From positions 9,735,875 to 9,799,874 of the forward strand of contig OZ316891.1 of the NCBI GenBank assembly GCA_973895155.1: a stretch of 64,000 bases of DNA, written 5' to 3'. The first letter of the stretch is position 1; each line of letters opens with the position of its first letter. Source of the DNA: Marsupella aquatica (taxonomy: Eukaryota > Plantae > Marchantiophyta). Positions 14,001-40,550 of the stretch are shown here, one piece after another. The notes below the pieces were generated by a model. That model was not told where the DNA came from and did not search any database. It saw nothing but the letters and a program-made list of their open reading frames with translations. The position numbers and the translations under genes were made by a program.

Positions 14001-17000
14001 GCATGATCCATGACTTAATCTATACTTCCTTCTCTTAGCACTTCTTCACCTTCTTTAGGAGGTGTAAACTACCACCCTACAACTAACTCTCTTAGAGTCA
14101 AACGGATATGCAGGCCACACTCGATGGGGACGGTAGAGCATGACGCATAGTCTTTCTTTATATCACCCAATCTCGTTACTTATGAGGTCGATACCTAAGA
14201 AGCATTTAGCACCTTACAAAGGACAAAGGTCCCTTAGATTTTGGCTTAATGCTTGCCTGTAAGGATCAGCACTGTCCTGCAGCTCATGCACGTCCATGAG
14301 ACATTCAAAATGAGTCACGGATTCAAATCTATATGTCTGATTGTTCTCAATTCTCAACTGAAGCATCTTCATCCAAGATGTCCATACGCCTGCACGACGT
14401 TAATTTAGTCATTCATTCTCTCGTAACAGTCAGTTCTGGACTCGTGAGCTGCTGTACTACTACATAGTGTACAGACCTCGTCCACAATGATCTCCTCTAT
14501 GATCTATCGTTCAGACATATCCTTTTAAGTCATTCATTTCTTCTTCATTCCGTCTGTCACTCTCAGCCTTCTCGGTAATGGTTGTTTAACCGAAGTGTGT
14601 AATAGAGGAACGGGAGACATTCTGGAACCTTCCTAATTCCAGTTGCATAAAGCGTAAGCTTGTATGGAGGGATGTTGTACAGGATGCCCTACATCTGTCC
14701 TGCTCTTGGACTGTCTGAGTGGGACTAAAGTAGTTATTAGACCTGAACGTTGGGAAGATGGTCTCGAAGTACACGCCGTTTGCTGCGAGAGTTGCCTCTT
14801 GCCCGTTCGCTTGCACTGGTCTGTACTTGGGAAGTAAATCATGCATGAGCACAGCGAAAACTGCCAACAGAGCCAACGATCCTCCACTAAACAGACCTGC
14901 CACACGCCAGATTCATGCTCAAGGTCATCGAACATGGGAAACATCGATCCATAACAAAATTGTTCTATATTTTAATCTTAATCAAACTCCCAACTACTCC
15001 GACTCTCTGTACTCTTCGTCCTCCATAATCACCGAAGAGTAACTGACAAAATCATCGATTGGCGTAAGCTATGCAAAACTGTCCGGTCGTAAGCTACTTC
15101 AAATCAAGCTCTTTCTGTGCATAATTCACAATGTAATTGTTGCCTCTAAGGCGTTATCCTACGAGTTTCACACGTTGATTGTAGGAATATAGTCGTTTAG
15201 GTTAACAGCAAATGCTGCGCCACTATGTGTTTGCTCTGGTGGTACGTGGGAGTACGACAGTTCAAGGACTAGAAACGATTCTCCTGGCGTATATGTAGTA
15301 GCCACTAGAGCACAAGATGGTAGTAAAATAAATCATAGTTTGAGACGTACCTAAGGCAAACGTGACGTGGTGGGAAGCCCTCTTCTGGCTAGGCCTCAGA
15401 CTCATCATTGCTTTCCGACGATTGTAATTTGCAAATTGTTCTGTGAACAACACCTCGACTTTATCCATGAGCTTCACAATCCTATCAGACGTGTTGAAGT
15501 AGGAAGTCTCGACAGCTTTGAGATACGCAGCTGCTGCCCTCTGTCCCGAAATCTTGTCGTATTTCTTGAGTATCTTTGCGAATGCGACCATGTTCAAGGA
15601 GCTGTATCTCTTCATCATCGCCAGTCCACGATAATACTCGATGAAGGCCGCACGCAGCATTTTTTCGGCCAGCTGGATCTTCTTCTTCGTTATGATGACA
15701 GGATCTGATGCTTTCTGATCTTTGACCTCTGGACTCCTTGAACCCCTCTGCACCTGTTTCACGACGTCCTCCCATAACGTCTGGGACAGCATGGAGATGG
15801 CCGTGCGCGGTGTTGTGATAGGAAGTCTCATTCTCATTATCTTCGGAGAAAGGGACCTCTCGTTTCTTCGCTTTTCCGAGGGGGAATCAGGCGACACGCT
15901 GATCTCACTGCTTTCTCCTTCTAAGTCATCTCTGTCAAGAAGTCCTGCAACGCCACCCTTGCTATCGAGACTAGCGTGAAAACTATTCGTAGTCTTACTA
16001 TCATCTGCCTGAGTCAGATGCAGCGACACCGTATTATCCCGACCCACCTCTAGATCTGTAATATTCATTCGAGCAAGATATTAATGATCATTCGGTTTAT
16101 GTTGGCAACGAACCAAAACATCAGCTTAGTCGTATTAAACATTGCCGAACCATCTCAATGAAACTAAAATCGGGAGTTATCTTGAAAATTTTTCAAAATA
16201 TACTTCTGACGTATATGCGGGATGCCTTTCCAGCACTTTCTAAAACACTCGTCCTAAGCGTACTACTCCTTGAGGCCAGAGGTTCCCAGGAATCTACCAT
16301 TCCCTCCGATGATTTGATTCCAACTTGGACTCAAATCCGAGAGACTAGAATACTTTGCTTGATTGCATAACTTTATCCCAGCGAAACAACAAGAACTGCG
16401 GGGCAGTGGGACTCATTGGGAAACGTACGGATCTCTTTCGCTTTTCGAATCTATATGCTTGTCTACATAAAGATTACAGGAGTTCCGTACTTCAAGATAA
16501 CCAGATTGATGCTGGAGTGACCAGCACGTTCAAAAATAGGACTCAAGTACTTCATGATCGTCCCTTTTATCGACAGCGCGGGAGTGCAAGCGTCCTACCT
16601 GTGATCGATGGATGGAAGGGATGGACAAGGAATCGAGTAGGACCGAATCGCTAGGAATTACCTACCATCTTGATTATCATCGTCACTTCCACATTCTGCA
16701 GCTGGCGAGTGTTGATACCTCTGATCGGAAAAAACTTTGCGCATCTCTAGCAAAGCGCACATTTGTTTCTCGAGAACATCTGCTTGCTCGATGAAGTCCT
16801 TCTCCTTGATTCTGTAGAACTGATTCACCTTGTTGAACTGAGAGTCCAGCCTAGCGAAAAAGGCGGCGTCCAACTCAGAAAGGTTCACTAGCTCAGTTTC
16901 ATGAATCTCCCAGGGATCATTTTCTACCTTTTTCACCTGCAAGGCAAAGAAAGATGATTGAGTCACTTCCAAATACTGTCGCGTTCATACCATGTCACGA

Positions 17001-18706
17001 ATCGTGACCACACTGATAAAATGTCTGCGACAGCTCTACGCAGGTTCGTTCCTTAGCCAACTCGATCTCCCAATTCTCCTCAAAATGTTTCACATCATCA
17101 CGGTACAGACAGCACAAGGCGTTGAATCTATCCGATAAAGCCCATCAGACATCAGCTTACACGGTTCACGGCTGTCGACTAACCATTCTCGAGGCCTGGG
17201 CTCACTTGAGAGCAGAGGAGAAATCAAAATTTTAAACGAGTACATAATTGACTATCTTTACCGATCATGAAGTTCTCACTTCATCAACCAATTGTATATG
17301 CTTCGAAATGATTTGGTTAACAAACTAGAAAGAACAACACCGGGCAGCCCTCAGGAACGATGTACACTCCCAGCACCATTTACTGGATACGACGAGTTAT
17401 GAAATACCCTGGACGGACGTACTGGCTTAATTCGAATCGTTATCACACAACCAAGTTTAACTACTTTCGTTGGACTGTGAAACCACGCTCGTGGCAACAA
17501 TTATTGCAAGGCGAAGCTTCTCGGTTGGAGACAAGACCCAGTTCAATTCACAAGCATGTCGATTCATACTCCCTGATATTGCTAGGCTAGTCAAACCTAC
17601 AAGAAGGAATTTACTTCTATTGAGATTTCCCTTGAGGATCTCTGAAGATCTGAACTCCATCGATCCGCCTCGGACTCTCCCTTCAGCGGACCCTAGGCCA
17701 TCACTAGGGTGAATTGGAATCTATCAGTAGTTGCGTAATTGACAGTTTCAAATAAAGTAACCGATGTACGGACCTCGCGAGTAAAGTCACTTGAAGCCTT
17801 GTCGATGACGGGGTCATTAATGAGCTTTCTAATTTCTACTACGGAAAGACTACAGAACCTTCTCCCTGTGGACTGTCTTATATGCAATGCATCTTGCGGC
17901 ATACTGCAAAGTTGGGCAAAATTTACTATTCATCTCCATTAGCTTTTGAGCCTTAAAGAACATTTATGTAAATTTTTCTGTCTTTCCTAACTTAATGAAA
18001 ACTTTTCAGATTCCCTCTATTCCTCAGAGATTCCACTCTGGCGTTCTCTGAACTTTCGGTCTCTAACGAGTTCACTGGCTTTTGGGAGGGTTGATGCTTT
18101 CCATATTTCGGTCCCGATCTTGATGTTTTCAAAAATTGGACTCTAAATTCAATACTCGACATTGCTCATGCAACAGATCCTCTGTGGGCCTTTTGAAACC
18201 TACCCTGCAGCATTCAACTCGTAGCACTAGCTCCTACAAGTATGCTTCAGTAAAATTTCACGAGAGTACCGGCGAGATGACGACTCCTGGAGCGGTTACG
18301 TAGGACAGTCAAAAAATTGGATGTGGATAGGCCAACAGGAGAAACACAACGCAATCTAGTTATTTGAAGGAAGAGCAAGGTAAATTGGCGAACTAGGCAA
18401 AGCCATTTTAAGCACCTGAACGATAGAGTCCCTCCGTGATCGTCGATTAAGTCTGTGTCCTCCCAAGGCCTGGCCAGTGAGAGCCACGAAAGTCCCTAAC
18501 GAATCTTGCACACGAGAGAAGTTCGACGACCTTCTACCGGACGCGTTACCCATTTGAAATGACGGCGAGCTCAGTTCCTTCGAACGCTCATCCTCTACAA
18601 CCTGCTTCATGTGTTTCAAATCTTTCTTCAGCAGTTTGTAGGTCACATAGGCAGCTCGCCATTCCGGCACAAGCTGTCCGTCCAATTGCTTCGAAAATTT
18701 CACCAT
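11071..18706 (-). CDS. PHO1: PHO1-family SPX-EXS phosphate exporter (~11 exons)
   Basis: N-terminal [23 protein letters not shown]; [16 protein letters not shown]; [18 protein letters not shown]; EXS motifs [21 protein letters not shown] and [20 protein letters not shown]. Ends with TAG TAA TAG at 11065-11073. Confidence 0.96.
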
Positions 18707-18787: not shown

Positions 18788-20028
18788 GAAATTCTGTTCC
18801 GACTTGAGTAGCAGTTATTGCCAACAGAAGAGGAAGGTTTGTACGTAGTCGGATATGAATTGGCTCCTCGACGGTGTGTCTATCGACCGAGCAATGCACT
18901 TGATTTATGATATTTTTTTCCAGGCAGTGTTGCAGTCATGTGTTAACCTAGATGGAGAGGACACGAGGACAGTTGCTCGATATCTAGCGAAGTAGGTGAC
19001 GTGCCGATTCCAAGCTCAAATGAGGCATAATCACCCTTTTAAGAGGCATTGCATTTTTATTCGAGAGCACTACAGGAAATCAACATGAGACTTCGAATGC
19101 ACATTTTGTGTGGCTGGAGAGTCTAAACGGCAGCTGCAGTATTGATCGGCAGGCTGCTGGTGATAAACGGAAAAGCCACGTGACACCCTTCAATGGTTGC
19201 TGCTGCTGATCGAGCCTGTCGCTATTCCTTGCTCCAATTGGCCCTGCCTGCCTACATCAAATTGATAATAACAATCAAATGAAACCACGCCACCGAGCGT
19301 GCCAAACACGACAACAAAAAGAACGAGAGCTAGCGGGTAAGTGTGCAATTCGTTGACATGCTAAAAGCCTTCTCATACCATTTGCCTTCTATTTGTAGGA
19401 GTCCAATCTATCCCTTGTGCTCCAGTGTTGCCCATGAACTTTCGATTTCCTCTCCATTCATTGGTTCTCTGTGTCTTTTCAGAGACAAAAAGGCAAGTCG
19501 CATCGATGAGGTTGTATCCGTCACGGAACATTCAAGCAAATCTTCCTTCTGGACTTCCGTCGACGCTGATTATGTCGCTATCAGACAATTCACAGTGAGC
19601 GTCTCTAAAACTCTGGTTACTACCAAATCAATACCATTTTTTGAACTAGTTCCTCGTCAAGAAAGTACCAACACCATGCTCTCTAACTTTCACATCACCT
19701 TCCTCAATTTCGTCTAGTAGCCATGCACTAAAACCAGGCAAGAGACACGTGACGGGATTAGAATTAAGGGAGTCGAATTAAGGGAATGGCCACGCCGACC
19801 CGAATTTCCTCCGTCTCCAATTTGACGGCGTGGAATCAAGACCAGACGACCTCAGGCTTGAATCGAGAATGTACGACCAGTCTCGGGAAAAAACACCGTC
19901 GCAGCAACCGTTACGAGAAGTTCCTTGTGCACGAGGACTCAGACTCGACCAACAAGATTTCTACAACATGGAACAACCGGCGGGGAAACAACTTAGTTAC
20001 CGAAGGCATCGATTGACATGCGAGAAAG

Positions 20029-20341
20029 ATTAAGCACGATTCCAAATATCGATGCACATTAATGAGGCGAGAGGGAGCGTTTACAGGGTATTACACTCGA
20101 CACTGCCACGCTTACATCCGTTTCCTGTTGGGCAGTCCGTACTGAAATCGGGCAGCGTGTTCCTTATGGACCATTGAACTCCCGCACCTGTCCCCAAAAC
20201 TACCACTGCCCTGTCCCTATTCATCTGGGAACCCTCCCGGGCCCGCACCGGCTGTAAACTGCACCTCTCGGGTCGCGTCCCTTCTCACTCCCGGTAATGT
20301 ATCGGGCATCCAGTATGAGCAAATTACATACTGGAGGGGTA
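20029..20341 (+). repeat. Left TIR of the MULE
   Basis: attaagcacgattccaaatatcgatgcacattaatgaggcgaga...catactggagggg. Confidence 0.95.
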
Positions 20342-20645
20342 CGAGGATGCCATACCTAAGAATGCAAATGAGTCCAGAACTTTCCTTCCCGCGCGAGACT
20401 TCACTCTGCCCTATTGCATACTCTTCCAGTCCACGTTTTCGTAGACGAGAATCGAGGTGTGTTCGCATGTGGTGAGTGTTTGCATTACCAACCATTCCTT
20501 TGAGCAATTCCAATGTTGAGGCTCATTTGCGGGTGAATGGTGTGAATGGTATTGATATTCATATCGTTCCAATTTTTCAGAGAGCATAACTCCCGTTGAA
20601 GTCACATACAAAGGGTTCATAGCGCGAAGCGGTAAGACAAACTCA

Positions 20646-21479
20646 ATGTCGATGCCAACTTTGTTTGATGTGCAAGCAGCTGTGATGAGAGAGGAGACCG
20701 GGTACATAGCTCCATGTAGTGTCCATGTTTTTAATTTCATTGCCACGAATCCCTTCCCAAAAAAATTCCTGTATCGAGGTTGTACAGAGGTCCTTCCAAG
20801 AGGACCGTGTAAGATTTCAATAGAAGGTCCAAGGCAGAAGCATTGCAAGCATGATGCGTTGCAGAATGGAACATACAGCAAGTTCTTCCGTTTTGAGTTG
20901 TTGTTAACGGATGGAACACTGGAGGCTAATTACGGGAAGCCAACTTTGCGGGCCGCTGTTTGGGATGCTGTGCGAAATTTGTTGGGCCTGTCCGCGACTG
21001 CCTTAGCCTGTATGGATCCACTGGATCAGTTCCAATTTATCCATGAGGCGGTGAAGGGTGTGCCCCTTTGCAATGTTGTTTTCCGGATGAATCGTGGTAT
21101 TTTGAGTGTGAATGAGTCGGACATTGTAGCATCAAGCAGTACGTTGCCACAGTCCCGTCTCTGGACCCAAACACGAACTCCTACACAGCTTGTAACACCG
21201 CTCGCCTCCCGAGCTCCACGCAGGGCACACTCCCCACACTTACCATCAGCCAATACCTACAACGTTGTTCCAGTTGGGTTGTTAGAGGACTCCACTGCAA
21301 CAACGTCCAATACCCCATCCATGGTGACCGCCAAGTCAGCCAAGTCACCTGTAGGGAAACCGAGGCAGCGTCGTACACCACACCTACATCGAGCAGAGGA
21401 GACTCATCACAGGTGGTACAAGAGGAAGGCGACAACGCAGCAACCCAGGGCACAATGTCAACCATTGTCCGACGCCTAG
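20646..21479 (+). CDS. MULE accessory ORF: RPA1/RPA70 C-terminal-like Zn-binding OB-fold with a basic disordered tail (277 aa)
   Basis: FLYRGC...PCK...HCKH...YSKFFRFELLLTDGT...AAVWDAVRNLLGLSATAL matches the Rep_fac-A_C pattern by eye (YxxC..C..C..C/H; yr.l.l.D.T; fd...llG.sA..l). The ORF is intact and intronless. Confidence 0.65.
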   Translation: MSMPTLFDVQAAVMREETGYIAPCSVHVFNFIATNPFPKKFLYRGCTEVLPRGPCKISIEGPRQKHCKHDALQNGTYSKFFRFELLLTDGTLEANYGKPTLRAAVWDAVRNLLGLSATALACMDPLDQFQFIHEAVKGVPLCNVVFRMNRGILSVNESDIVASSSTLPQSRLWTQTRTPTQLVTPLASRAPRRAHSPHLPSANTYNVVPVGLLEDSTATTSNTPSMVTAKSAKSPVGKPRQRRTPHLHRAEETHHRWYKRKATTQQPRAQCQPLSDA

Positions 21480-21665
21480 CTGAAGTTTTCAATTCATCAT
21501 TGGATGTGTACTCTGGGCGCAACCGTTAGTCATAGAATCAGCTTAGCGTTGGACTTACTTAGTCATTTTGGAAGGAATTTCCGCATTGTGCAATGCCACT
21601 TTTATTCTCGTTTCTCTTCAATGAACACTCCGTCTTGGTGTTCCACGACTACTTGTATGCATTAT

Positions 21666-24600
21666 TGTGACACGGGTAACGTGTCACTTGACCGAACCCA
21701 GGTCGTAGATTAGGACTTATACGGTCATTAGGACCGTAGCCATAGCGTAGAATAGCACGTATAGCCGTCAAGTTGCCATTATGATTAGATTAGGAGTAGG
21801 TTAAGATAACCGAATAATTACGAGTTCAGGAAAGGGATTATTACGCACGACCGAGGTACGGTGGCGGCAGCGGAGTAAAAATCAGTTAGAAGAATCACGC
21901 TTGGACCGAGACGCCGACTTCAGCTCGTTATCAATGACCAAACGGCCTGACCTTCTCACGCTCGGGCTCGTCCAGGCACCCCCATAAGAGAGGAGCTGAT
22001 GGCACTGCGGGCCATTCGCTCACGTTTACCTTTTTGGAATTCACGGATGCTGCCATCCGCTCGCCTTTTTGATTGAATCCAGTCGACCTTTACGAGGAAA
22101 TTATCGAGGGAGAAGAGCGGAATGTGGCGAGATTTAGTCAGGACGAGCGAGGCCTCCGCGAAAAAGGACCAGCCAGGTGGGAACGTGGACGCAATGAACC
22201 GGACTACAAGGTTAGTATGACCCTCACAGCCTTGGGATTTTGGACCTTGTTTGGCGAGGTAGGTGCTAAGTTCTCCAAGACTTACTGGTACTCTTGCCCC
22301 GAGAAAGCCGTTTACGAACGAAGGTACGCAAAGCTGGTAACCAAGGTAGCACTAGTTAATTGCGACAGGACAGCCATCACCAGGGATTCTAGCTATAACG
22401 AGCTGCGAGACTACATCACCGAACTATATCTCAGCGAGGAAGGGCTTAGATCGGTAGCAGACTGAGGCAATTCTTGAGGTTCCAGCTAAGTTCTTTAAGC
22501 TGAAGGGCAACCAGCGGCTTACTCAAGCGGAGTTCGACAAGATTCCGGGGTACCTAGACCAGCAGATCGCAGCCGAAAAGCGCCAAGAAGACATCAGCAG
22601 ACAACGGGAAGCGGCGCGTAATCTCACGTTCCTCGGGGAAAGCTCCAACGCCTTCAACTGGGATATGGCTACCCCAGCGCCTCAACCGATGACCACCGGA
22701 GTACCGCCGAACCAGTCCCAAGTCCGTCCAGTAATCAACGTGGAGTGTTCTTTGGGTTCCGAGCGAGCTAGTCCGCAACTCGAACAGCGTCCTCGTAAGC
22801 GGTCAAGGACTACGACGGCCCCCGAATCAACACGGACCGATGCCGCGCCTGCACCTGCCCCGGCAAACCCCCCGACCAACCAGACCCGATGGCCCCCGGA
22901 TAACCTGAAGTCCAACTTATTACAGGTAATCCGCGTCCCCGAGGTAGTCTGGATCGCGATCAAGAAACTCGAACATGCGGACTATCTCAAGGAGCATCAG
23001 TTGGAGCGGTTTGCCCACTTACTATGGAGGCCGTGCGCCGCCGGGCCGAAGGAGATTTGTGAGTTCATCTCCAATTTCGACACTGATGCGTCAACCACCA
23101 AGGTTTCGGGGCAGACCTTATCACTCACAGAGCATCGGTTAACGCAAATTTTCGGCCTACCAACCGGGCCGGTGCCGGTGGAAATCCGAATTCGGGATAA
23201 GGAGTATACGCCGCGGCACTTCAAACCCGAGGGTAAGACGGACAACGGATACAAGCAGGGGGCGTGCACCAACTTAACCTGTATGGAGCGGCTTAACTTC
23301 ATACGGACTACCCTACACATGATTGAGCCACGATCCGAGATTTCCCTCTGCATAATCGTGCAGGTGGAACAGTACAAACGACGAAACTGGGCCCAATTCT
23401 TCTACTGAAGATTCTCAGGGGAGCTGAAGCGGGCTCAGGGGGGTATGGCTATTGGAGGGAAGACTTACTTGGGAAGTCATATCGCCATTATCCTCGCCTG
23501 GTACAAGGCACGGCGGGAGGCTAGAGGAAAGAATACGGCCACCTCAGCCCCGGGTAATGTCACCCCCGCCCCAGAGGAGGCAACCCCTACTACGCGGACT
23601 ACTGTCCCTCAGACAAACCCTGAGCCGGAAGCCCCGACTAATACTCCGCAACCGCCCCCTGTGGAAATTCCATCGCCTCCTTCCGTTGAGCCTCCGCTAC
23701 CTGCAGTACAACCACCCCCAATCCCTCCACCACCTGAAGAAACCTTCCCCTCCCCAGCACTGACTACGGAGGAGCTCATTGCCCCTGCCGAGGAACCACC
23801 GGTACCCGAGAGGATGGAGGACTACCAAGTAGCCCCGGGGACCATGGCCTACGACCTGGTCCAGAAGTTTAGCCAGACTATGTCTGGGGAGTTGGCGACA
23901 TACATCGGACAACAAGTCTCGACGTACTTTCAGCCAGCCTTCTTCATGTTAGAGCACCAACCACGGATCGTCAGCCGCTTGGAAGAAGAACTCATGGCGA
24001 AGGGGAATGAGATCGAGCGTCTCCAGATGCTGGTAGAGCACCTCGAGGAGGAGGCAACGACCCGCCGCGAGGATTTAGTGTGCATTGTCGAACAGAGGGA
24101 CGGACTAACCTAGGAGTTAAGAGGAGCGCAGGCCAAACTCAAGAAGCTGGACGACACCGTGCTTCAATTACGCTCAGAATCTTTGGCTCGGGTTACCAGC
24201 CTGACCGACCTCAACAAACAATTCCTGCAGGCAGCACAGCAGGTGGCTAGTCTCTCTGCCGAACGAGATAAATTGCTAGCGCAGGACCAGGTCCATCGCG
24301 ACGCCATCGACCAGCTCAACTTGGAGGTGGCGCGGCTCCAGACTGAAGCCGATGAAGCTGCAAACAAGGCGGAGGAAGCATTACGGGACAACAAGGCTTT
24401 GCAGGACCGCGTCACCCTGCTCGTCCTCCAGCGGGGAAAACCTGGGCCCACCTCTGATCAAGGCGGCTCGAGGTCTCGCCCCGACAAGGGGACCAGCCCT
24501 GGTCCAACCACTGCACACACGTAAGGGGTAGTTAGCGAAGGGTAGAAGCAGGCGCCGCGCGAGGCGGTTAAGTCAGCGGCATCTTTTAGTTAGGCGTAAC

Positions 24601-25507
24601 GACAGAATGACTGTCATTAGGCGCCGATTAGCGGCAGTAGGAAGAATTAGGGCCGGTCAGTTAGGATCAGCCAACGTAGGATTGAGTCCATCAACAGACT
24701 AGAGTTGGTCAGTAGGCTTGGCCGCTGCCATTCCGGTTGGCACACTCGTAGTCGACGGTCAACCGGTCAGTGCAACGCGACCAGTAGTCAGCAGTTAGTT
24801 AGTCAGTAGGTAGTACCCCGGAAGGTAGTATCCTCCGGTTCTCTTCCGCTATGGTAGTATTTAGGCTTCCCCTTCCGCGATGGGAAGGGGGAGAAGGCTT
24901 AGTTATCTCAGCAGAAGAAAGGCGAGGCACGGGGAGTCCTGGCCTGAGTAGGGTCAGAGCGTACCAAGGAGTGAGAGCCAGAGTCGAGCTTGCTGGGCAA
25001 GTGCGAGGCAGGGCCTCGTAGAGACTGGGCATCAACTGCCATTGGGCCTGCTGACCCCCTTTGAAGTCGAGTCAACCATGTAAACTGATGCTTCGCTGAG
25101 TAAATGTAGTCTTTTCCCCCTAATGTTTTTGAGCGTAACTGGTGTTGTGTGTATGCTTTGTCCGGGCAAAGGCACCATTTTAAGGGACGTACCGGGTGCG
25201 GACTAATGGTAGGGATTGCCACTCATTGCATGTCACAAGGTCCTATCACGTCGATGGCTTGAAAAGCCCCAAGTCGGGAGTTAGTCCGCGTCACTAACTG
25301 AGGGAAAATTCCAGCGGTGGAAAATAAATATACCTATGACAAGTACGAATTATGCGAGTGTTATACCAGTAAGTATAGCGACTTAGCCCGACTTAGGGCT
25401 ATTGAAGGTCACTACACACCTCCTTGCCCGAACCCTCACCCCTACTGGTGGTCGAGGTCGCACCACGACACTAACCCGGATTTAAGGCCCAGGGTAGGGG
25501 TGCGACA
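21666..25507. mobile_element. Nested 3.84-kb TG...CA element with 5-bp TSD; probable Ty3/Gypsy-type solo LTR
   Basis: Begins tgtgacacggg and ends ggggtgcgaca. attat is duplicated at 21661-21665 and 25508-25512. No internal repeat of either end, and no PBS, RT or integrase seen. Confidence 0.8.
21960..24524 (+). pseudogene. Decayed long ORF inside the nested element: plant-transposon-type domain, Pro-rich linker and coiled coil
   Basis: ORFs 22665-23408, 23445-24113 and 24159-24524 share one frame, separated by single TGA/TAG codons. The frame extends upstream to ~22464 and joins ORF 22073-22465 through a frameshift. Motif ICEFISNFD...KVSGQTLSLTEHRLTQIFGLP. Confidence 0.7.
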
Positions 25508-25837
25508 ATTATTGTACCAAACGTTTTTTTATGTCGCACACGGTGTTGTCGCTACTGTGAAATTGAAATGTTTTAATTAGTTTATCCACTCACTTTTATT
25601 GCATGCCTTACATGTAAATTGTATCGATTGGCCTCCAATTATTGAACAATGCCATGCAATTGTCCGACACCTATCCATTGGAAATGACAGTATACCAATC
25701 ATTGTTGGACGACATGAGTGCTTGAGAATCACTCCATGCAAGACTGAAAAACTGAAACTGTAACGTACATTCTTACTCACAAACATTTTACATTTTACTG
25801 AGCACGTACCTTCATATCTGTTGCAGGTGTCAGGGAA

Positions 25838-28073
25838 ATGGCGCGAACAAAGAACCAGGTAAGTCTTCAATGTCTTCACATAGTAGTTACATTTACAATG
25901 TACATGATTGAATGATGATTGCAGGATTAGGGTACTATTTGCGCTCATTTACAATATTCATGCAGGTTACTATTCTCCCATGCCTCTAATTAAGTGTCAA
26001 ACTTGCCTCAGTTTAGAGTTAGTTCAGAATGTTCTCTGTTGTTGCCCCATTATGTAACTCACTCTGTAACTCACTCTGTCATGGGTTTGTGTATTGTCAG
26101 GCTGCTAATCAAAGATTGGCTATGTGGAAGTCTCACACTCCGACCTCCCAGCCAACTGTCATGCACAGTCCCAAGTTAAATGTCCCCACCATGCCTGAAC
26201 CAACCCCTCCGGTTCTTGCTCTACCACCACCGCCCGCCCGTGAGGAAGCTTCATCTCAACCGCCCCCTATTCCTAGTGATGCACAGTGTTTGCTGACTCC
26301 CGTCCTGGCTCTACCAGCTCCATCAGCCTATGTCCCCAAGATTGTCAAGCCCCAATTGGCAATTGAAAGTGGCCCTGTTGTGCATACAATTTTAGCGCAA
26401 ACCCATGCCACTGAAGACGACGATGTGGTCATGACGGCAGTATTGCCAGGTCCCTCCATCGGTGTGGTCCCTCCGACTACCGGGAAAAAGAGAAAATCCA
26501 ACGCTGGTAAAGCAAACTTGAACACTCACACCAGGTTCACTCCACGAGCAGCAAAGGTTGGGATTCAGTATAGAGAGCACACCAGGATTGCGTCACAAGA
26601 ACCAAAGGTGCCGCGTCAATCCAGCCAACATTCAGGTTGTGGGTTGGTCAGTGAAGAACCAGACCCAAAGACAAGCATCCGCAAAGAGCGGAAGTGTCAA
26701 GTGGACACACATTCTTCCCAAATTAAGAATGTGCCAAAGCTTGCAAAGTTCTGCAGATGTGCAGCTTTACCCGAGCCATGTGCACACTGCAAACTGGTAA
26801 GAACTATTCGTGCTCCAAGTCCCTCTGCAGGTACATATATGGTGTATTTCATTCTTGAGTTATACATGGCGCTCATGTCACAAATATTCTGCCCAATTGT
26901 GAACAGGAGTCAGACATAAGAAGCCACGTCAAGGAGGGAGTTCATTTTTCTGTTTATGGGGCCGGTGCTGTTTGTAAGATGTTGCCATGCAAGAACATGG
27001 TTTTCAAAACCCAACGCACGTATGGGTGCCATGTTTTCAAGAAGCATGGCCTCATCAGCAAGGGAACCCCACCATCGTTGTACACAAATGACCCAGTTGC
27101 TCAACGGCAACGTGAAGCGCGGAACGCTGCTCGAAGGAAACAGCCTGGAGCTACAGCATCACCAAATTACGTGAATGTGAGGGGGACGTTGCGACAGCGA
27201 TGGAGCATGGCAAAGAGATGGGTGAAGTGAGTTCCTCACTGAATCATTGCTCTTCACATTGTGCAAGTCCTGCTCTTTTCTTGAACTGACTAGCTGTAAC
27301 AAAATTGTTATGTTGTTGTAGGTCAACTACTCAATGCAAGTTTGTCACTAGATTTGAGGAAAACCGAGCACGAACTCCACAACCACCAGTTGAATCTGAA
27401 ACTATATTCATAATTTTCTTCAAGTACTTCATGCCTAAACCTGGCTTCCACGCATGGGATAGTCTCATAAGTGACCGCGATTGGGCTTGCCTGCAGGCAT
27501 TGCTTCGACAATGCCCAGCCACATCGTACGTTTGTTCATGGGTGGAGCAAGCCCAAACTGACATTCGCGATGGTGCATATGCACATTTGGATGACTCTGA
27601 CATTCAGCGCCTCACCAGAACTGCTTCAGTGTTGTCAACTTTCTTTGAGCCACTTGGTGGGTCGTTTGAAGCCATCGAAGTCCATGATGCCATGGCAGCG
27701 CAACGCAGAATGCTTTGTGAAGATGCCCTACAGTGGATGCAGCAAAAACGAGACAACCTATTGTGGGATGAGGAGCATGGATGGCCACGGTATCAGATTC
27801 TGGGTGATAACGAGTACAAGCAATGGAAGGCCATGCGCAAACAAAAGGCAATTAACACTTATAAGCCAAACATTGTGGCATTGTACAAGAAAGTTAACGG
27901 ATGCACAGAAGCAGAAGCTATGAAGCAGGTATGGGTTTATTTACTCACCCTACCTCGGTTGGTCTTATTATTACATGTACCTTCTTCCCACAATAACATG
28001 TGCCACCTGGGATGTACAGGTGGAATTGGAATCAGCTTGGACGGACACATCAGACGAGGACCAGATTTCATAG
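25838..28073 (+). CDS. MULE accessory gene (5 exons, ~565 aa): H3-like N-terminus MARTKNQ, Pro-rich region, CxC..CxxC cluster and C2H2-like zinc finger
   Basis: Exons 25838-25858, 26101-26796, 26907-27226, 27322-27928 and 28020-28073 all have GT-AG boundaries with matching phases (0,0,2,0). Motifs CRC....PCAHC and CKMLPC...F....YGCHVFKKH. An acidic tail with 33-bp repeats probably once extended to 28536. Confidence 0.7.
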
Positions 28074-28243
28074 TCTGATGCTGAGGAGAAGGATTCACAA
28101 CTTTGCCTTGATGCAGATGCCGACGACATGTTTGGACATGTACAACCCATTCTCGACATTGTTTTGGACACGCCCGATGCCGTAGTGGGACATGTGTCAC
28201 CCAATGAGTTCAATGAACCAAGTCCTTTGGTGGAACCATTTGG

Positions 28244-28378
28244 ACTCTAATATGGCAGTGCCCCAAGTGGAATCAGAGTCTGACATAGCAGTGCCCCAAG
28301 TTGAATCAGAGTCTGACATAGCAGTGCCCCTTTGTGAACCAGAATCTAATATACCGGTGCCCACAGTGGAACCCGACT
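28244..28378 (+). repeat. 33-bp coding tandem repeat (~4 units, SDIAVPQVESE)
   Basis: gcagtgccccaagt(g/t)gaatcagagtctgacata is repeated, followed by two degenerate copies. Confidence 0.8.
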
Positions 28379-29131
28379 CACCTGAGGGGAATTCCAGGTG
28401 GGCTCATCCGTTGTTGGATCCACTTCCACGTAGTGCCCCTGAGTCACTCGTGGAAATCTTGGAACGAATTACATCAGCGTCAACAAAGTGCGCCGATGTT
28501 CAGAAATTGTTGGACACCTTGGACACTCCTAAGTGAGCCAGTTTTCTGAGGCATTGAGATTAGGCCCATTTTTTGCCCACAAGATACATATTATATGAAC
28601 GTCTTGGGGGGCTATCGGCACTACCTGAAGTTCACTTAAGCTTTTCCCATGCATTTTAGTGTAAGACTCAGGTTGTAATTAGTTCTGTAGCGGGCCATAG
28701 ATTTTGGTGGAGGAATGACGGTTGCCCTTCACCATATAGTACAACACATGCAATTCAGCCCCACGAGGCTTGTTGGTCCCGTGCCTGTAAGTTTGCGTGC
28801 ATAAATATAATACAAGTTTGCATTACTCAGACTCAACTTGTACACATTGGAATGAAATTTTGCCCCGCTATTTTATGATTTGTACATATATATCTCATTG
28901 CAACTACGGTGAAAGGTGGAATTAATAGTGCAGTGGGTTCTGACTGGAAAATGTAAACTTGTGACTCCAGTTGTGCGTGTTTCACGAATGCGCTATGATA
29001 TGGACATGTACTCTCTGCGTGAATTAAAAATGCATTCGAATAGTGACTGGATGCCAAAGACATTGAAGCAAAGCGAACCAATGAAACTTTTTACTTATTG
29101 GCAGAGTGAAGTGGTCATACTGGTCATATAT

Positions 29132-32100
29132 CTAGTCGTCCTTAATGGACACTACAGTTTGACTGACTTCGGCTGGTGTCCAAACGGTGGACGACACTCC
29201 TGCAGAAAAAGCCCGTAAAATTTGATCAAAATTGGGTGACATTGCCCAGGCTTGGCTTGAACCTAATTGTATATTTCCAATAATCCCCATTGTTGTCTGG
29301 CTTAGAGGGGCGTTAAGCACGCATGATTGTGAGGCATGTGTGAGAACATCTTGTAGTGGGAATGGAGCGCATGCTCGACTTTTGTTGTTCCTCCCGGCCT
29401 TGGCAGTTGTGGGGGCGATTGTTTTGTGTGTGCGCTTAGTCTGTGCGCTGGAATTGACTTTATGTCCGTCGGTGCGATCTGTCAAAGCATGGCACATGTC
29501 TGCCAGCGCGTCTATGGACTCCTTCTCGAATTTGGTCTGGAATGACACTGGTTTCTCCTTTCTCTTGGCGTGGACTTTGTCAGGTGCATTTGCTCCAGAC
29601 ACTAAATTTTGCAAATCTCCCTCTGGGTATGGAGCCTGGTTCTCTTTGTTGTTCTTGTCATTGCACCCATCAATTTGTCAACCCAGCCTCGTTTCCTGAC
29701 GATACTTCTGTCAGTACCTTCGCCTGGAGTGAGTCATGGCCCAACTGTCTCTCTAGCTTTCCTACATTTGTTGTGCCTCCCTCTTGAGAATGGATTCCAC
29801 CCAGTGTTTCAAGTCAGCCAAAGCTTGCTTAGCCAGGGTTGGGTGGTATGAGATGGAGTCATAGCAAGCCCTTACGACTACTTGGAACTCCTTGAAAGGC
29901 GGTGATACTTCGATATCCTGCGTGACATCCGGGGATCCTGCCTCCCAAATATCCTCATTGTCGTATGTGAGAGTGATATTGCCTACCTCCGTGGGCAATG
30001 TTGGATTATCTCCTTTGCTGACATTGAAGTGGTGGTCTAGGCTGCCTGAAAAAGAGCCAAATTTTGTTCCCAGCTGATGCAGAATTTCCAACTCAGACAT
30101 CTTCTGTGTAAGCAACAGAACTTTGATCTGCACATGAAACCCGAGATCCCATCGCGGATGAGAATGTGCATGGAAAGGGTGAGAAGACCAGAAGCGTGTT
30201 GTAAGTAACCAACTTATTGATTGCTACTGTATCTTACCTGATGTTTGCATGCATTTCCCTGCAGTGAGAACCTGCATGTACATGAGCAGGTGTCCTTGTC
30301 CCAGTCTATGACTACATGTTCTTTGGGTCCCACACCATAATTCTTTGATGACGTGCTCCGAACTGAGGCGCAAGAGGCCAAACCACAATGAAAAGTGGTG
30401 ACGTAGTCATCTGGGATACCCTTAGCGCGCTGTAGGGACTTGTGCACATGCCCTTAAATGGTCCTGTTCCTAATGCGGCCTTGGAATTTATCAGCACAGA
30501 TGCACCAATAGTGGTTCTCAAGCACTCTTAGTCGCCCAAGTAGCCAAGGTATGGAGCGACCTGTAATACTGTACCGACCCGCCTTCAACTCCATCTTTAG
30601 AGTGTGATGCCAGCGCTCAATACCCCCATTTGTGTTCTGGTTGGCGTGATTGTAAGCTCGTAACTTCACTGCCCAACTACACACTTTGTTGTGCCATTCT
30701 CGTTTGTAATAAACGACAAATCCTGGTTGTGTGTTTCTCCATCGATCCATGAAGGCTTCAGACTCTTCACTCAAATCTGCAGGGAACATTATGCTGTCGT
30801 TAGGTAGACAGCCATATAGACTGAGTTATAGACTTCAGGACTTGTTTGAAATGATTGTCACATGGAGGAAGAAATAATTGAGCTCACCTAGCCCGTTTGA
30901 ATACATGATAGCCCCTAAATCAGCATTAATCTGGGCTTTCGCAAATGGGCAAAAGACTTTCGAGATGATGTTCTTTGTCCAGGCCCTTCGAACGTGCCAA
31001 ATGCAAAAAGTAATATGCACGTCTAGGAATACCTGCCTGAATGAATGAACTCAAGAAGAACACATTTGATTAATTACCATGCATGTGGCAGTTTTTGTTG
31101 AGGTGCAGCGGAATTCATCACGAAAGGCTTTTGTTACACAGACAATAAGCGGGATAATATACCTGATTGCTACGTGCTCCTCATCAGCTACGTCAATTAT
31201 CCAACAGGTTGGCGTCCAAGGGAGGGTGAGATTCATTTCAGCCCTCCTGGCATTGACACGATCCTTCAGGGCATTCAAAGCTCGGCTAACATGCACAGCT
31301 TTGTACGTTTGCATCAGCGCAAAAGCAACGGGAATGGCATTCTGGAATTTGTCAAAGACAACCACCGTGTAAAAAGGAAACTGCAAAACAGAAAATCCCA
31401 CCAAAACCCCCGAATTATCAGGTGGATTCAGAGTGTCATACACGACTGCAGCAAGGTATGTGAATCTTACTTGATAGATGGTTATGCCTTACCCCGAGGT
31501 GATTCGTGCCAAACATGGCATCAAATGCTACTGGCCCCTCATGCCCAAGTTGGGCTAGCTTCTTTTGTTGCCAAGGAGACGACCACACGAGAATGAAAGG
31601 CTGGTTGTCTGCTTTCACCTGAGGCTGATACAACAGAACTTGCTCTTCATTCTGAAGGACCCAGAGTTTTGTGGCTTGTGCTTTGTCCGAGCAATAGTCG
31701 GGTTCACACCGTCGCATACAATCCCGCATAGTTTGCACATCCTTAGGAGTGAGCTGCATGTCTCTGGACATGATGACATCAGCATCCTCATCCGGGTGCT
31801 CCTTACGCCACCTAGTCAGAATTTCCTCTAGATGTGCATCCACAATTGCCCTGGCAGTCAAGCCTGCCCTCAGGTATCGTTCAATTTTGGTCCTCAGCTT
31901 CAACGAGATTCTTGGAGCAATATATATGTGCATTTGATTCAAAGGCTGTGGGGTCTTTCAGGCCATGGCAAATCTTACCACGCCTATCCAAGTGATCTTT
32001 TCGGATCCACTTGATCAATACAGCCCCAGGTCGATCCTCATATTTTGTGGAGGTAAATGAACATCTGCAGCCACGACGTACAGACATTCCTGCATGATGA

Positions 32101-32706
32101 GATCCAAGTTGAAGGTGAGTGACAGTTTCTTACTCGACTTCAAAACAGCAAAAGGTAGTAATCCCAATGCAAACATTGTAATTCTGAGCCCAGAAATAGA
32201 GGTTCACCTATTAATGTTTTCTTCTTGAGAAAGATCCTTGCTTCATGGCATTTGAGTTTGTCTGGTACCTTGGTTGATTTCCAGCCTCGATAATCCTCAA
32301 GCCCATAACAGCAGCAATATAACGTAGTTGTCTTGACCAATGGACCTATCTTATAGATGCGGCTCTCTACCATCTGTCGGGTAGTGAATTGTGTATGGAA
32401 GTAGTCCCACATATTCTCAACCCAAATGAAATCTTTCAGTCTTCCCTCTGGAATCCAAGCATAATCAAATTTTGAACCAAACCATTCAAGAGCAGTAAGT
32501 TCGAATTCACCAGGGCGCGGATTCTGTATTTTATCACATCTCAAATATTCAGAGTGGCTTTTGCGCATGGGTGGAGTAACTGGTGGCACACACTCATTGT
32601 TAACCTCATGGATAGTAAGGCCACGTAAATGCTCCAACACAACATCCAATGCATCTGGTTGCGCAAATTCCTCTCTGGAAATGTGCAGCTCCTCACTGGC
32701 GTCCAT
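29132..32706 (-). pseudogene. MULE (MuDRA-type) DDE transposase with SWIM finger, disrupted
   Basis: Spliced exons carry VAFDAMFGTN (D1), WIIDVADEE (D2), CIWHVRRAW (CxxH), TNGGIERWH (E) and CSCTCRFSLQGNACKH (SWIM). Frameshift near 31920-31930 and in-frame stops at 30454-30456 and 29762-29764. Confidence 0.92.
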
Positions 32707-33045
32707 TATGTGTATATGTTGTATGTTTGTCCTCGCATCCCTTGAGATCCTCTATTGTTCAAAAGGATCGCACATTGGCAAACGCTGGCGCTCCTTCACA
32801 CAACCAAGTGTGAGTGTTCAGAAGTTAGCACGCTGCTACCACGCGCCTCATTCATTTTGGCAGATTGCACGACATTCCTGATCATTCGTGAGTACACACT
32901 GTTGTGGCAGAGAATGAGAATGTAATAGAATGTGCAGAGTGCCTTCCAACATTCCCTCTTGGACTCGACACATGCCAGACCCCGTCCCGCTCAATTAGAA
33001 ACAATATTCCACATTTGAATGCGTACATAATGGATTTAGGTGCAT

Positions 33046-33363
33046 TACCCTCCAGTATGTAATTTGCTCATACTGGACGCCCGATACATTGTCGGGCATA
33101 AGAAGGGACGCAACCCGAGAGGTGCGGTTTACAGCCGGTGCGGGCCCGAGAGGGTTCCCAGATGAATAGGGACAGGGCAGTGGTAGTTTTGGGGACAGGT
33201 ACGTGCGGGAGTTCAATGGTCCATAAGGGACACGCTGCCCGATTTCAGTACGGACTGCCCAAAACAGGAAACGGATGTAAGCGTGGCAGTGTCGAGTGTA
33301 ATACCCTGTAAACCCTCCCTCTCGCCTCATTAATGTGCATCGATATTTGGAATCGTGCTGAAT
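33046..33363 (-). repeat. Right TIR of the MULE
   Basis: ccctccagtatgtaatttgctcatactgg...gatatttggaatcgtgctgaat. Confidence 0.95.
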
Positions 33364-34036
33364 CGAGAAAGGTCTTGACCCGCATTCCATTAAAGATCAT
33401 CATTGAACAAAGTACTTATTAGGTTATCATCATCTTGTTCACTATTTTAAACGAAGCCCCACCGGCGCAACATCATCCCTGTAAAGCACCGAGGAGCGGC
33501 ATCAGCATACACAGCACACCTACTCTGCCTATGCGCATCGCCAGTGGTTCTCCGGAGTATCCGGAGTTGTGTTTGTTTGTCATTTGTATTGGTCGTCCTT
33601 TGCTTCTTCGGCTTCTGTTCAGACAGTCGTATCGTCTTGATTGTTGTCTTCATGCCCGCACCCCCCCTGTATTCCGGTACGCTCGTGTAAATCATGCATC
33701 TCATGAGCGTGTGGGTGCTTCCTATGGGTATAACTGGTTGTTGCCTCCCTTTGATTGGGTCTTTTGCGTGTGAGATCATGTCTCTTGCCTTTCAATTTTT
33801 GGTACCAAATACTTGATTGGGTATACATATAATGGTGAGGAAAATACTTGATTGGACCCTGGAGGGAAGAAAAACCTCATGTCTATTGGTTGAAAGCGTT
33901 TTAATTTTTGGCAGAGTAGTATATAATGGTGAGAAAAAGACTTGATTGGGCCATCCTAAAGACTTGATTGGGCCATCCAAGGAATAAAAACCTGTGAATC
34001 TTTTTATGTTTCTTGGCTGTGTGATATATTTTATAA

Positions 34037-34606
34037 CAGTTTTTTATTAACCTGTCCCCCAAATCACCCAAATTTACTGACGTGCCCCTGAAACATATTT
34101 ATTTATCACCTTGACCCCCATTTTGTATGTGGGTTAACTTTTAACTCACGATCGGGTTTAGGGTGCAACATGGTGACTCGCTATAGGCTGAGCTTAACTC
34201 GCCGGGCTCTCCTTTATCCCCCCTTCCCTTCTCCCTGCCCGACACCATTGCAGGCCCGGGAGGACTTAAAATGCGACCCCACTAAAGAGTCGCCCTTCCA
34301 TGCCGTCCCAAAAATGACTCGTTGCCTCTCGAGGATCACTTGTGGAGGGGCGACCAGTTTTCGGGAGGGACGACCGGGAGGGGGAAGGCCTGCGATGGTG
34401 TTGGGCAGGGGTGAAGGGAAGGGGGGTAAAGGAAGGCCCGGCGAGTTAAGCTCGGCCTATGGCGACTCACCATGTTACACCCTAAACCCAATAGTGAGTT
34501 AAAAGTTAACCCAGATACGAAATGGGGGGCAAGGTGATAAATAAATTTGTTTTGGGGGCACGTCAGTAAATTAGGATGATTTGGGGGACAGGTTAGTAAA
34601 AAGCTG
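34037..34606. mobile_element. Foldback Mutator-type MITE, 570 bp, long TIRs (~200 bp), 10-bp TSD
   Basis: cagttttttattaacctgtcccccaaatc... is the inverse of ...gatttgggggacaggttagtaaaaagctg. tattttataa occurs at 34027-34036 and 34607-34616. Confidence 0.9.
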
Positions 34607-35239
34607 TATTTTATAATGGCAAGAAACTACTTGATTGGGCTTTACACTAAGTGATTCCTGAGGGTTGCAATTTGTACACTTGGAATGATAGCACACTCGT
34701 TTTTTACACAAACACTGCCCAATTTCAAGAGATATAGGGCCAGTAGAGAAGGGTTACACACAACGCCCTGCATGTGTGTGTGTGTGTGCAACCCAACCCC
34801 CAATGCAAGGATTTTGATGTGAGAATTGGCTTCATTTTTGGGCGGCTGCCAAAAATTGTGTCTAATGACAGATGGTCTACCATACTCTTGCTACCCAACA
34901 CTTGCAATTTCCCATCCTTCCTGCATCTAATCCTACTACTTGGTGTACACGTTGCAATACAAAGGTTTTGGAAGAGATATTCTAATGCATTTGGAGTTGT
35001 CCCATCTCTTAGCATGATTGTTTCGAATTGGATCCAATCGAGGATCCAATTAATAAAGTATGAGAATTGCTTCACTTGCTAGTGGATCACTGGTCAATTT
35101 AACTCTCTTGCTCACATGTTTTTGGCTGAGCGATTACCTTATGAATGGGATGTGCCTCACAAGCTCTAGGCTTGGCCCTAGCCCATTCTCAGGGCCACAA
35201 CAAGATATGGATTTTGTTGTTGATAATGAGGGTGATGCA

Positions 35240-39275: not shown

Positions 39276-39629
39276 ATAGCCCTGCCAAATGCATCACGAA
39301 TTCAAACTGACAGCCATTTACGAAAAGTTAGTGCTTGTTTTGCGTGTTTCGCCTTTCGAGTGTATGGTTTGGATGCCGATGACGCACCTGCACTACTGTA
39401 GATCAGCAGACAAGGATTGCTACTAGTCGCGTAACAGTGTGACTCACTCATCCAAGCCGCTCAAGCTGTGATTACTTTGCATGGAGCTTTGGACGGCGAC
39501 GTGGTGAAAAATAACAGGGGTAGGCGCTGAATTTAGGGCAGCAAAGACTGTACGATGGCATGCGCCTTTGGAGGCTTTCCAACTTCTCATTCCATTGTCT
39601 TTCCATCGTCTTCCAATGCTGCGCGGACA

Positions 39630-40550
39630 TGTCTTTCGAACACAACGCCAGGGTCTTTCGAACACAACGCCAGGGTAGGTCTTTCGAACACAACGCCAGG
39701 GTATTGTGTTCAAAAGTTGAAATTTTTTAGTCTTGGCAAGAAAAAGTAGTTTTAATGCAAACACAACGTCATTTTAACACCACACCCGGGCGTTGTGTTC
39801 GAAAGTTGAAATTTTTTAGTCTTGGTAAGAAAAAGTAATTTTAACTCAAACACAACGTCATTTTAACACAATGCCCAGGCGTTGTGTTCGAAAGTTGAAA
39901 TTTTTTAATCTTGGCAAGAAAAAGTAGTTTTAACTCAAACACAACATCATTTTAACACAACGCCCAGGCATTGTGTTCGAAAGTTGAAATTTTTAAGTCT
40001 TGGCAAGAAAAAGTAGTTTTAACGCAAACACAACGTCATTTTAACACCACACCCGGGCGTTGTGTTCGAAAGTTGAAATTTTTTAGTCTTGGTAAGAAAA
40101 AGTAGTTTTAACTCAAACACAACGTCATTTTAACACAATGCCCAGGCGTTGTGTTCGAAAGTTGAAATTTTTTAATCTTGGCAAGAAAAAGTAGTTTTAA
40201 CTCAAACACAACGTCATTTTAACACAACGCCCACGCATTGTGTTCGAAAGTTGAAATTTTTAAGTCTTGGTAAGAAAAAGTAGTTTTAACTCAAACACAA
40301 CGTCATTTTAACACAACGCCCGGGCGTTGTGTTCGAAAGTTGAAATTTTTTAGTCTTTGTAAGAAAAAGTAGTTTTAACTCAAACACGACATCATTTTAA
40401 CACAATGCCCGGGCGTTGTGGTCGAAAGTTGAAATTTTTTAGTCTTGGTAAGAAAAAATAGTTTTCACTCAAACACAACGTCATTTACTACAATGCCCAG
40501 GCATTGTGTTCGAATATGGTCTTGTGTTCGAATATTGCATTGTGTTTGAA
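39630..40550. repeat. 89-bp tandem array (9 units, 39703-40503) with palindromic junctions and short flanking sub-repeats
   Basis: (g/a)ttgtgttcgaaagttgaaatttt... begins at 39703, 39792, 39881, 39970, 40059, 40148, 40237, 40326 and 40415. Three ttcgaacacaacgccagg copies precede the array. Confidence 0.95.

Follow-up and report, generated by a model that had tools for sequence, protein, structure and literature searches.

A broken Mutator-like element of the liverwort Marsupella aquatica with an RPA70C-type gene and a zinc-finger gene with an H3-like start

In silico analysis of a 64,000-nucleotide window of the Marsupella aquatica genome (assembly GCA_973895155.1, contig OZ316891.1, positions 9,735,875 to 9,799,874) has revealed a Mutator-like element (MULE) at positions 20029-33363 of the window. 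The element is a MULE by structure and is dead in this copy. It is one dead representative of a multi-copy MULE family in which the transposase is likely accompanied by two helper genes kept over long times: gene 1, for a predicted miniature RPA70, and gene 2, for a putative zinc-finger protein with a start like that of histone H3. The ends of the element and its transposase gene are as follows.

20021..20028, no strand: left target-site duplication, 8 bp, identical to 33364-33371
20029..20338, plus strand: 310-bp terminal inverted repeat on the left, matching the right repeat at 298 of 310 aligned bases (96%), with 2 small indels
33048..33363, minus strand: right terminal inverted repeat, pairing with the left one
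33364..33371, no strand: right target-site duplication, 8 bp, identical to 20021-20028
29132..32706, minus strand: Mutator-type transposase pseudogene, six exons (32706-32208, 32089-31493, 31380-31163, 31036-30888, 30776-30238, 30127-29132)
Minus strand, transposase motifs read from the exon model: D ~31522, D ~31194, CxxH ~31005-30994, E ~30618, SWIM 30288-30238
Minus strand, transposase lesions seen from the exon model and other copies: frameshift ~31922, stop 30456, broken tail 29764-29660

With 110 boundary pairs compared, none gave a longer duplication than the target-site duplication (TSD), CGAGAAAG, and the left junction is bridged by contigs of runs X1 and X2 with 0 differences. Alignment of the terminal inverted repeats (TIRs) and comparison of the boundary pairs confirmed the long TIRs and 8-bp TSD proposed in the initial annotation, which had been made from the sequence alone. 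Once a nested insertion is subtracted, the Mutator element measures 9,488 bp. An 8-bp TSD is likewise made by hAT elements. Membership in hAT, with its short TIRs, BED finger and hAT dimerisation domain, was rejected on the 310-bp TIRs and on the Pfam result, which consists of SWIM and a weak MULE match with no hAT family. The TIRs of MULEs often reach hundreds of base pairs and their TSDs range from 8 to 11 bp (PMC6446971; here and below, sources are cited for the excerpts available). Since both the TIR length and the 8-bp TSD fall in this range, the element is placed among the MULEs; it also encodes a DDE transposase with a CxxH insert and a zinc finger. An Rfam scan gave no match, nor did a viral fold library at E<=0.001.

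The transposase gene starts with an ATG located 342 bp inside the right TIR, and its five introns, of 110-126 nt, all have GT-AG borders (5/5). A CxxH insert is a signature of MULE transposases. In Pfam, SWIM was recovered at 22.3 bits (cut-off 19.6), and the MULE and ZSWIM1-3 RNaseH-like families stay below cut-off on single exons. The exon models and motifs bear out the proposed arrangement of one minus-strand DDE/SWIM transposase and two plus-strand genes. In the tail, other copies hold about 31 extra letters at 29663, and four apparent stops there are better read as two frameshifts. Among the transposase variants, 6 of 12 are synonymous. The protein may resemble the products of the Arabidopsis SWIM genes At1g60560 and At4g13970; the literature search yielded neither name.

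Gene 1 is represented by a single exon.

20646..21529, plus strand: gene 1, single-exon mini-RPA70, with a zinc-ribbon OB domain (~20652-21131), a Ser/Thr/Pro-rich linker and a C-terminal amphipathic helix (~21455-21526)

Counted inward from the left TIR, the gene begins after about 310 bp, and a splice donor lies ahead of it at ~20472. This copy has one frameshift somewhere in the linker, and the C-terminal helix of the family sits in the second frame. Taken alone, gene 1 matched nothing in Pfam, in a PDB sequence search or in a word-indexed homologue search, and locus searches of metagenome, viral and prokaryote contigs gave no relative. HMMER over 1.84 billion representatives recovered 67 relatives at E<=0.001. 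After removal of two unrelated long proteins, the family consists of 65 proteins of 73-383 aa (median 215 aa; 0/65 of at least 400 aa), and most homologues begin at the OB domain itself. The alignment (A1) contains 63 rows and uses 62 of the 67 matches, with P0061 and P0062 (tail), P0052 and P0060 (short) and P0066 left out; the tree was built from 56 of the 63 rows. The predicted zinc ligands are widely kept in the 63-row alignment: (i) C46 in 60 rows; (ii) C55 in 57; (iii) C67 in 59; (iv) H69 in 57. At the column that corresponds to a DNA-stacking Phe of yeast, 59 of the 63 rows retain an aromatic residue. In the long members a C-terminal helix stands behind the Ser/Thr/Pro-rich linker and is more amphipathic than the linker (45 proteins, p 3e-6).

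Thirty of the relatives have been looked up; ten come from NCBI, all of them (10/10) from Calypogeia fissa, and the others are unnamed. With cluster members included, the C. fissa homologues amount to 15 accessions on 11 scaffolds. Their rows are spread across several branches of the tree, which is the pattern expected of a mobile gene. The protein of the window groups with three C. fissa rows (support 97/89, the bootstrap not being fully settled), and its nearest relative is about 50% identical. A paralogue aligned over 555 nt shows 97 differences and 0 gaps. The mini-RPA70C family is solid, and it seems to be unnamed in the records examined.

The fold of the gene 1 product was modelled with a predicted local distance difference test (pLDDT) score of 93.3, in contrast to the single-sequence fold, which was unusable (pLDDT 32). 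The top six fold matches of the model are RPA70 DBD-C or Teb1 OB-C, with Z 10.1-12.9 over 137-146 residues; the best is 4gnx_C (Z 12.9, root-mean-square deviation 3.3, 139 aligned residues), next to 1l1o_C (Z 12.6) and Teb1 OB-C (Z 12.7). The zinc-ribbon OB fold is thus common to the model, to RPA70 DBD-C (4gnx_C, 1l1o_C, 6i52_C) and to Teb1 OB-C (3u50_C). The gene 1 protein differs from the latter two in its low sequence identity (10-17%) and in its ligands, which are C-C-C-H and not four Cys. Compared to RPA70, it lacks DBD-F, A and B ahead of DBD-C, and its final helix follows a long linker. The product is therefore predicted from the model to be a stand-alone RPA70 DBD-C-type zinc-ribbon OB domain with a C-terminal helix. 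The label RPA-like given to it at the outset stands as far as fold and profile go, and has to be narrowed to the zinc-ribbon DBD-C, the high-affinity A and B domains being missing. In RPA, DBD-C is part of the trimer core, and its affinity for single-stranded DNA (ssDNA) is thought to be far below that of A and B (PMC6303327).

POT1C (Z 9.5) and TEBP alpha (Z 8.9) also appear among the fold matches of the model. Together with Teb1 OB-C they rank with RPA70, and the TIRs are long, so gene 1 could be read as a sequence-specific end binder like POT1, TEBP or Teb1, acting in the transpososome on TIR ends that are single-stranded or form hairpins. By sequence, however, the family profile searched against 177,635 PDB sequences matches yeast RPA1 DBD-C alone (E 1.2e-4). 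Pfam Rep_fac-A_C is found in 2 of 63 members and telomere families in 0, and the Atlas neighbours of P0002 are Rep_fac-A_C clusters (0.90). An end-binding role is accordingly held to be improbable. The second Atlas neighbour of P0002 is the cluster of a chordate DNA damage-induced apoptosis suppressor, likewise with a lone Rep_fac-A_C domain.

Gene 2 is composed of five exons separated by four GT-AG introns, with 565 codons open.

25838..25858, plus strand: gene 2 exon 1, 21-nt mini-exon MARTKNQ with a GT donor; an X2 contig matches 24 letters to 25861 and resumes at 26053
26101..26796, plus strand: gene 2 exon 2, disordered Pro-rich region, KKRKS basic stretch, CxC-x6-CxxC cluster (26749-26790); in X3 and X4 loose ends the final two Cys are conserved, as is the 26797 donor
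26907..27226, plus strand: gene 2 exon 3, C-x4-C-x13-H-x4-H finger (26973-27047), motif read from the sequence
27322..27928, plus strand: gene 2 exon 4, domain of ~200 aa with no homologues found, conserved in diverged copies
28020..28536, plus strand: gene 2 exon 5, repeats of 33 bp in an acidic tail; this copy has a frameshift near 28240 and, ahead of it, a premature stop at 28071

A donor at 26831 would break the frame, and the donor at 26797 was adopted. With the nested insertion set aside, the distance from the gene 1 stop to an acceptor just ahead of the gene 2 ATG is about 450 nt (21530-21665 plus 25513-25826). For the finger, Pfam gave no match and the PDB search a weak one to a C2H2-type protein (E 0.55). 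Set against the H3 tail, the start of gene 2 matches only over ARTK and A7. At the predicted start codon, the sequence M-A-R-T-K follows the iM-Z-R-X-K rule published for H3 N-terminal mimicry proteins (PMC8166343). Such starts number 48 among 20,996 human proteins and are enriched for chromatin roles (PMC8166343). The description of this protein as H3-tail-like depends on these five residues, which fit the published rule but come with no K9 equivalent.

None of the three genes is intact in this copy. The transposase open reading frame (ORF) is not intact, and the initial annotation was wrong to suggest an autonomous element as far as this copy is concerned. The suggestion that the accessory ORFs are better preserved is not confirmed: genes 1 and 2 carry three lesions in about 3 kb, against about four in 3 kb of the transposase gene. 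The lesions of genes 1 and 2 sit behind the folded domains, and one transposase frameshift sits ahead of the catalytic core. As regards gene 2, an X3 loose end has a sense codon at 28071, and X1 and X3 contigs skip 37 letters at 28236-28274 and are in frame to 28536. With the frame open across 28071 and as far as 28536 in other copies, gene 2 carries two breaks here. In the runs of organism B, 27973-28504 is present without difference, the stop at 28071 included (X3 to 28504, X4 to 28372). The same broken copy seems to be common to organisms A and B.

Other copies exist for each gene. Contigs 80-95% alike are present for all three, and the number of diverged contigs per run, counted at one site per gene, is 4-12 at 20710 (gene 1), 5-9 at 27676 (gene 2) and 2-8 at 31025 (transposase). 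Diverged copies of gene 2 from four runs have matches that stop at the intron borders 26903 and 27232. By hand translation, 7 of 11 amino acids are conserved in the loose end at 27049, all of them encoded by changed codons; in the loose end at 27504, 8 of 10 are conserved, and changed codons encode five of them. Mini-exon 1 is kept in one X2 contig that skips most of intron 1. Of 476 gene 2 variants, 40 have been listed, with 15 in modelled exons 3-5; 7 of these 15 are synonymous, against 22-27% expected (p 0.03-0.08).

These data bear on the reading of the element as an ordinary Pack-MULE, in which genes 1 and 2 would be recent host gene fragments drifting neutrally. The breaks in all three genes would agree with it. 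Against it stand (i) the nearest relative of gene 1, at about 50% identity, and a family with its own conserved ligands and start; (ii) the exon-intron structure and amino acids of gene 2 kept in diverged copies; (iii) the presence of a transposase gene. A capture of this kind is largely refuted and considered very unlikely; neither gene appears, at the level of sequence, to be a recent neutral Pack-MULE fragment. The near-identical, neutrally evolving host fragments that would have spoken for simple capture were found for neither gene, and dedicated cargo is supported by the distance and conserved ligands of gene 1 and by the kept exons and amino acids of gene 2. A three-gene MULE lineage, with all three genes co-carried in the family, is graded as likely.

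Several points weigh against the interpretation as a MULE family with two dedicated helpers. No contig spans two genes, and the three genes are seen together in this copy only. One 4.6-kb X1 contig matches, among the matches listed, the gene 1 domain alone, and the C. fissa homologues of gene 1 are known as proteins and scaffold accessions. The Pfam MULE match to the transposase is below cut-off (E 0.025 and 0.077). No transposase homologue was retrieved by a word-indexed search of the core or from metagenome contigs, and its lineage is for that reason unplaced in the MULE tree. For gene 2, no homologue was found by a word-indexed search with exon 4 or above cut-off in Pfam and NCBIfam. Negatives of the word-indexed kind are weak, as HMMER later gave 67 relatives of gene 1 where that search had given 0. 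The variant test of gene 2 is borderline, being based on 15 listed coding rows of 476. The H3 likeness covers five residues and lacks K9, and basic protein starts are common among nuclear proteins. VANDAL-type motif arrays were sought in 2 kb of non-coding DNA, where no 9-mer occurs more than twice, no 8-mer more than four times, and no such tandem array is present.

The linkage also bears on whether gene 1 might be a passenger, an RPA70C-only gene spread on other elements such as Helitrons, or as a host multigene family, and acquired by this one Mutator subfamily with no benefit to it. Helitrons do use RPA (PMC9033089), stand-alone Rep_fac-A_C proteins are common in streptophytes according to the Atlas, and the linkage of gene 1 is seen in this copy only. 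However, the distance of the gene 1 start from the left TIR mirrors that of the transposase ATG from the right TIR, each of the three genes has contigs that are 80-95% alike, and neither a Helitron-type capture scar nor near-identity to a host gene was seen. A passenger gene is thus given little credence, slightly less than an end binder.

For a family with dedicated helpers, the following working may be proposed. Transcription of the transposase would be driven by the right TIR and that of gene 1 by the left TIR, with the two ATGs 342 and ~310 nt inside, and the transposase would cut and paste the element with an 8-bp duplication; these are the most confident of the inferred steps. Alternative splicing of a single left-TIR transcript may yield both gene 1 and gene 2. 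The gene 1 product would bind ssDNA weakly, and its C-terminal helix would join host RPA32/RPA14 or itself. The resected donor site would then be refilled from the sister chromatid, and the element would gain a copy. As the haploid plant body has no homologue, the sister chromatid is the sole template, so that a protein coating the resected ends together with host RPA32/RPA14 would raise copy gain. Replication of MuDR-type elements proceeds by gap repair at the donor site. Elements of this type are able to switch to a replicative mode (PMC3627910). The role of gene 1 as a donor-site repair helper acting through RPA32/RPA14 is suggested tentatively. The finger of the gene 2 product would bind the element, and the ARTK start of this protein, displayed to readers or writers of H3K4, would maintain the activity of the element. 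A finger-anchored H3K4 mimic is a somewhat more doubtful proposal than the repair role.

The same domain composition has been considered from the side of silencing. Gene 1 keeps the trimer-core domain and the C-terminal helix without DBD-A and B, and transcriptional silencing is released in plant rpa2 mutants (PMC2721414); its product might accordingly be an anti-silencing decoy that soaks up RPA32/RPA14 into trimers without A and B and weakens replication-coupled silencing. Titration of RPA would, however, affect the whole genome to the detriment of the host, in contrast to VANC, which is sequence-specific (PMC5735166), and the conserved aromatic column and zinc ligands fit real DNA binding. 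Such a decoy seems rather improbable, if less so than an end binder. A broader scheme would see a two-part host-hijack kit, in which the mini-RPA70 swaps into the RPA trimer and steers repair or silencing, the H3K4 mimic on the finger protein recruits readers to the element DNA, and the mini-RPA family forms a widespread unrecognised accessory class. The mini-RPA family is deeply diversified within one liverwort genome, that of C. fissa. The kit as a whole is regarded as unlikely, though a little less so than the decoy.

Accessory ORFs in MULEs are established, with mudrB, mutB and vanB/vanC as examples (PMC6446971), and Arabidopsis MuDR elements contain two to three and up to six genes each (PMC13547354). 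Capture of Ulp1 by MULEs (PMC13317346) and algal accessory cassettes (PMC12477816, bioRxiv 2025.02.11.637652) have also been described. Two accessory genes are present here, not one as in maize MuDR, and the cargo consists of an RPA70C-type OB protein and a C2H2 protein. The MuDR genes mudrA and mudrB have a convergent layout. Maize MuDR is alike in its long TIRs, its DDE transposase and an extra gene in one element (PMC6446971). The TSD is 8 bp here, compared to 9-10 bp tabulated for the MUDR group (PMC6446971). Arabidopsis VANDAL21/Hiun (vanA, vanB, vanC) is likewise a three-gene MULE with dedicated helpers (PMC5735166, PMC6446971, PMC13547354). In contrast to VANDAL21, the present element has long TIRs, and Pfam gave no MAIN/PMD-type match, at sequence level and with gene 2 exon 4 not folded, in either of its accessory genes. 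The RPA accessory gene of Helitrons is also a transposon-borne RPA-like gene (PMC9033089); Helitrons, however, use a rolling circle, make no TSD and have a direct need for ssDNA binding, whereas this element is of the cut-and-paste type and holds the DBD-C piece only. The H3 N-terminal mimicry proteins share the start of gene 2 but are host proteins with binding data, gene 2 being transposon-borne and known from sequence alone. Yeast Mutyl (mutB) and the red-algal Mutator/Plavaka accessory cassettes are likewise non-angiosperm MULEs with accessory genes; their cargo is mutB, or methylase/SET and ParB-oxygenase, and the excerpts of these sources contain no mention of RPA or OB folds. The literature searches yielded no MULE described with RPA70C or histone-mimic cargo; Repbase and most subscription papers were outside their scope, and supplements of PMC6446971 and bioRxiv 2025.02.11.637652 may list such cargo. 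Multi-gene MULEs and Helitron RPA cargo are thus already known, and RPA70C and H3-start cargo in a MULE is seemingly new.

Between genes 1 and 2, a further feature interrupts the element.

21666..25507, plus strand: solo-LTR-like insertion, 3,842 bp, with TG...CA ends and a broken ORF inside; 5-bp TSD ATTAT at 21661-65 and 25508-12

The initial three-gene layout holds, with this nested insertion overlooked. It landed 137 nt behind gene 1, has a higher G+C content and contains no internal direct repeat. Its broken ORF spans some 690 codons (22458-24524) with two stops, has an upstream piece at 22073-22465 and a coiled-coil-like end, and matches no Pfam family above cut-off. One variant letter in the insertion is carried by up to 46 contigs per run, indicating a high-copy sequence. 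The summed X1 contig depth relative to the flank is 7-11x over the three genes and ~630x in the nested piece, values that were used neither as copy number nor to rank gene parts. The segment is best read as a later solo long terminal repeat (LTR), outside the Mutator family.

In the surroundings, an SPX-domain (PHO1-like) host gene is located at 15262-18706 on the minus strand, with the element ~1.3 kb upstream of its start codon, a position that fits the MULE bias for gene neighbourhoods. An inverted repeat resembling a miniature inverted-repeat transposable element lies 670 nt right of the element (34036-34607; 221-nt arms, 88% complementary), followed by a tandem array at 39590-40601 with an 89-nt period and internal inverted repeats. 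Other host genes of the window encode a right-handed beta-helix protein (46729-48036) and a fragment of RNA polymerase Rpb5 (51304-51894).

The role of MULE helper genes such as mudrB is a long-standing question, and donor-site repair decides how a cut-and-paste element gains copies. One concrete answer is suggested by a Mutator element with its own predicted RPA70 trimer-core domain: such genes may control either single-stranded intermediates of repair or RPA-linked silencing. Should the gene 2 product prove to bind readers, histone mimicry, known from viruses and host proteins, would with this transposon-encoded H3 mimic reach DNA transposons as well.

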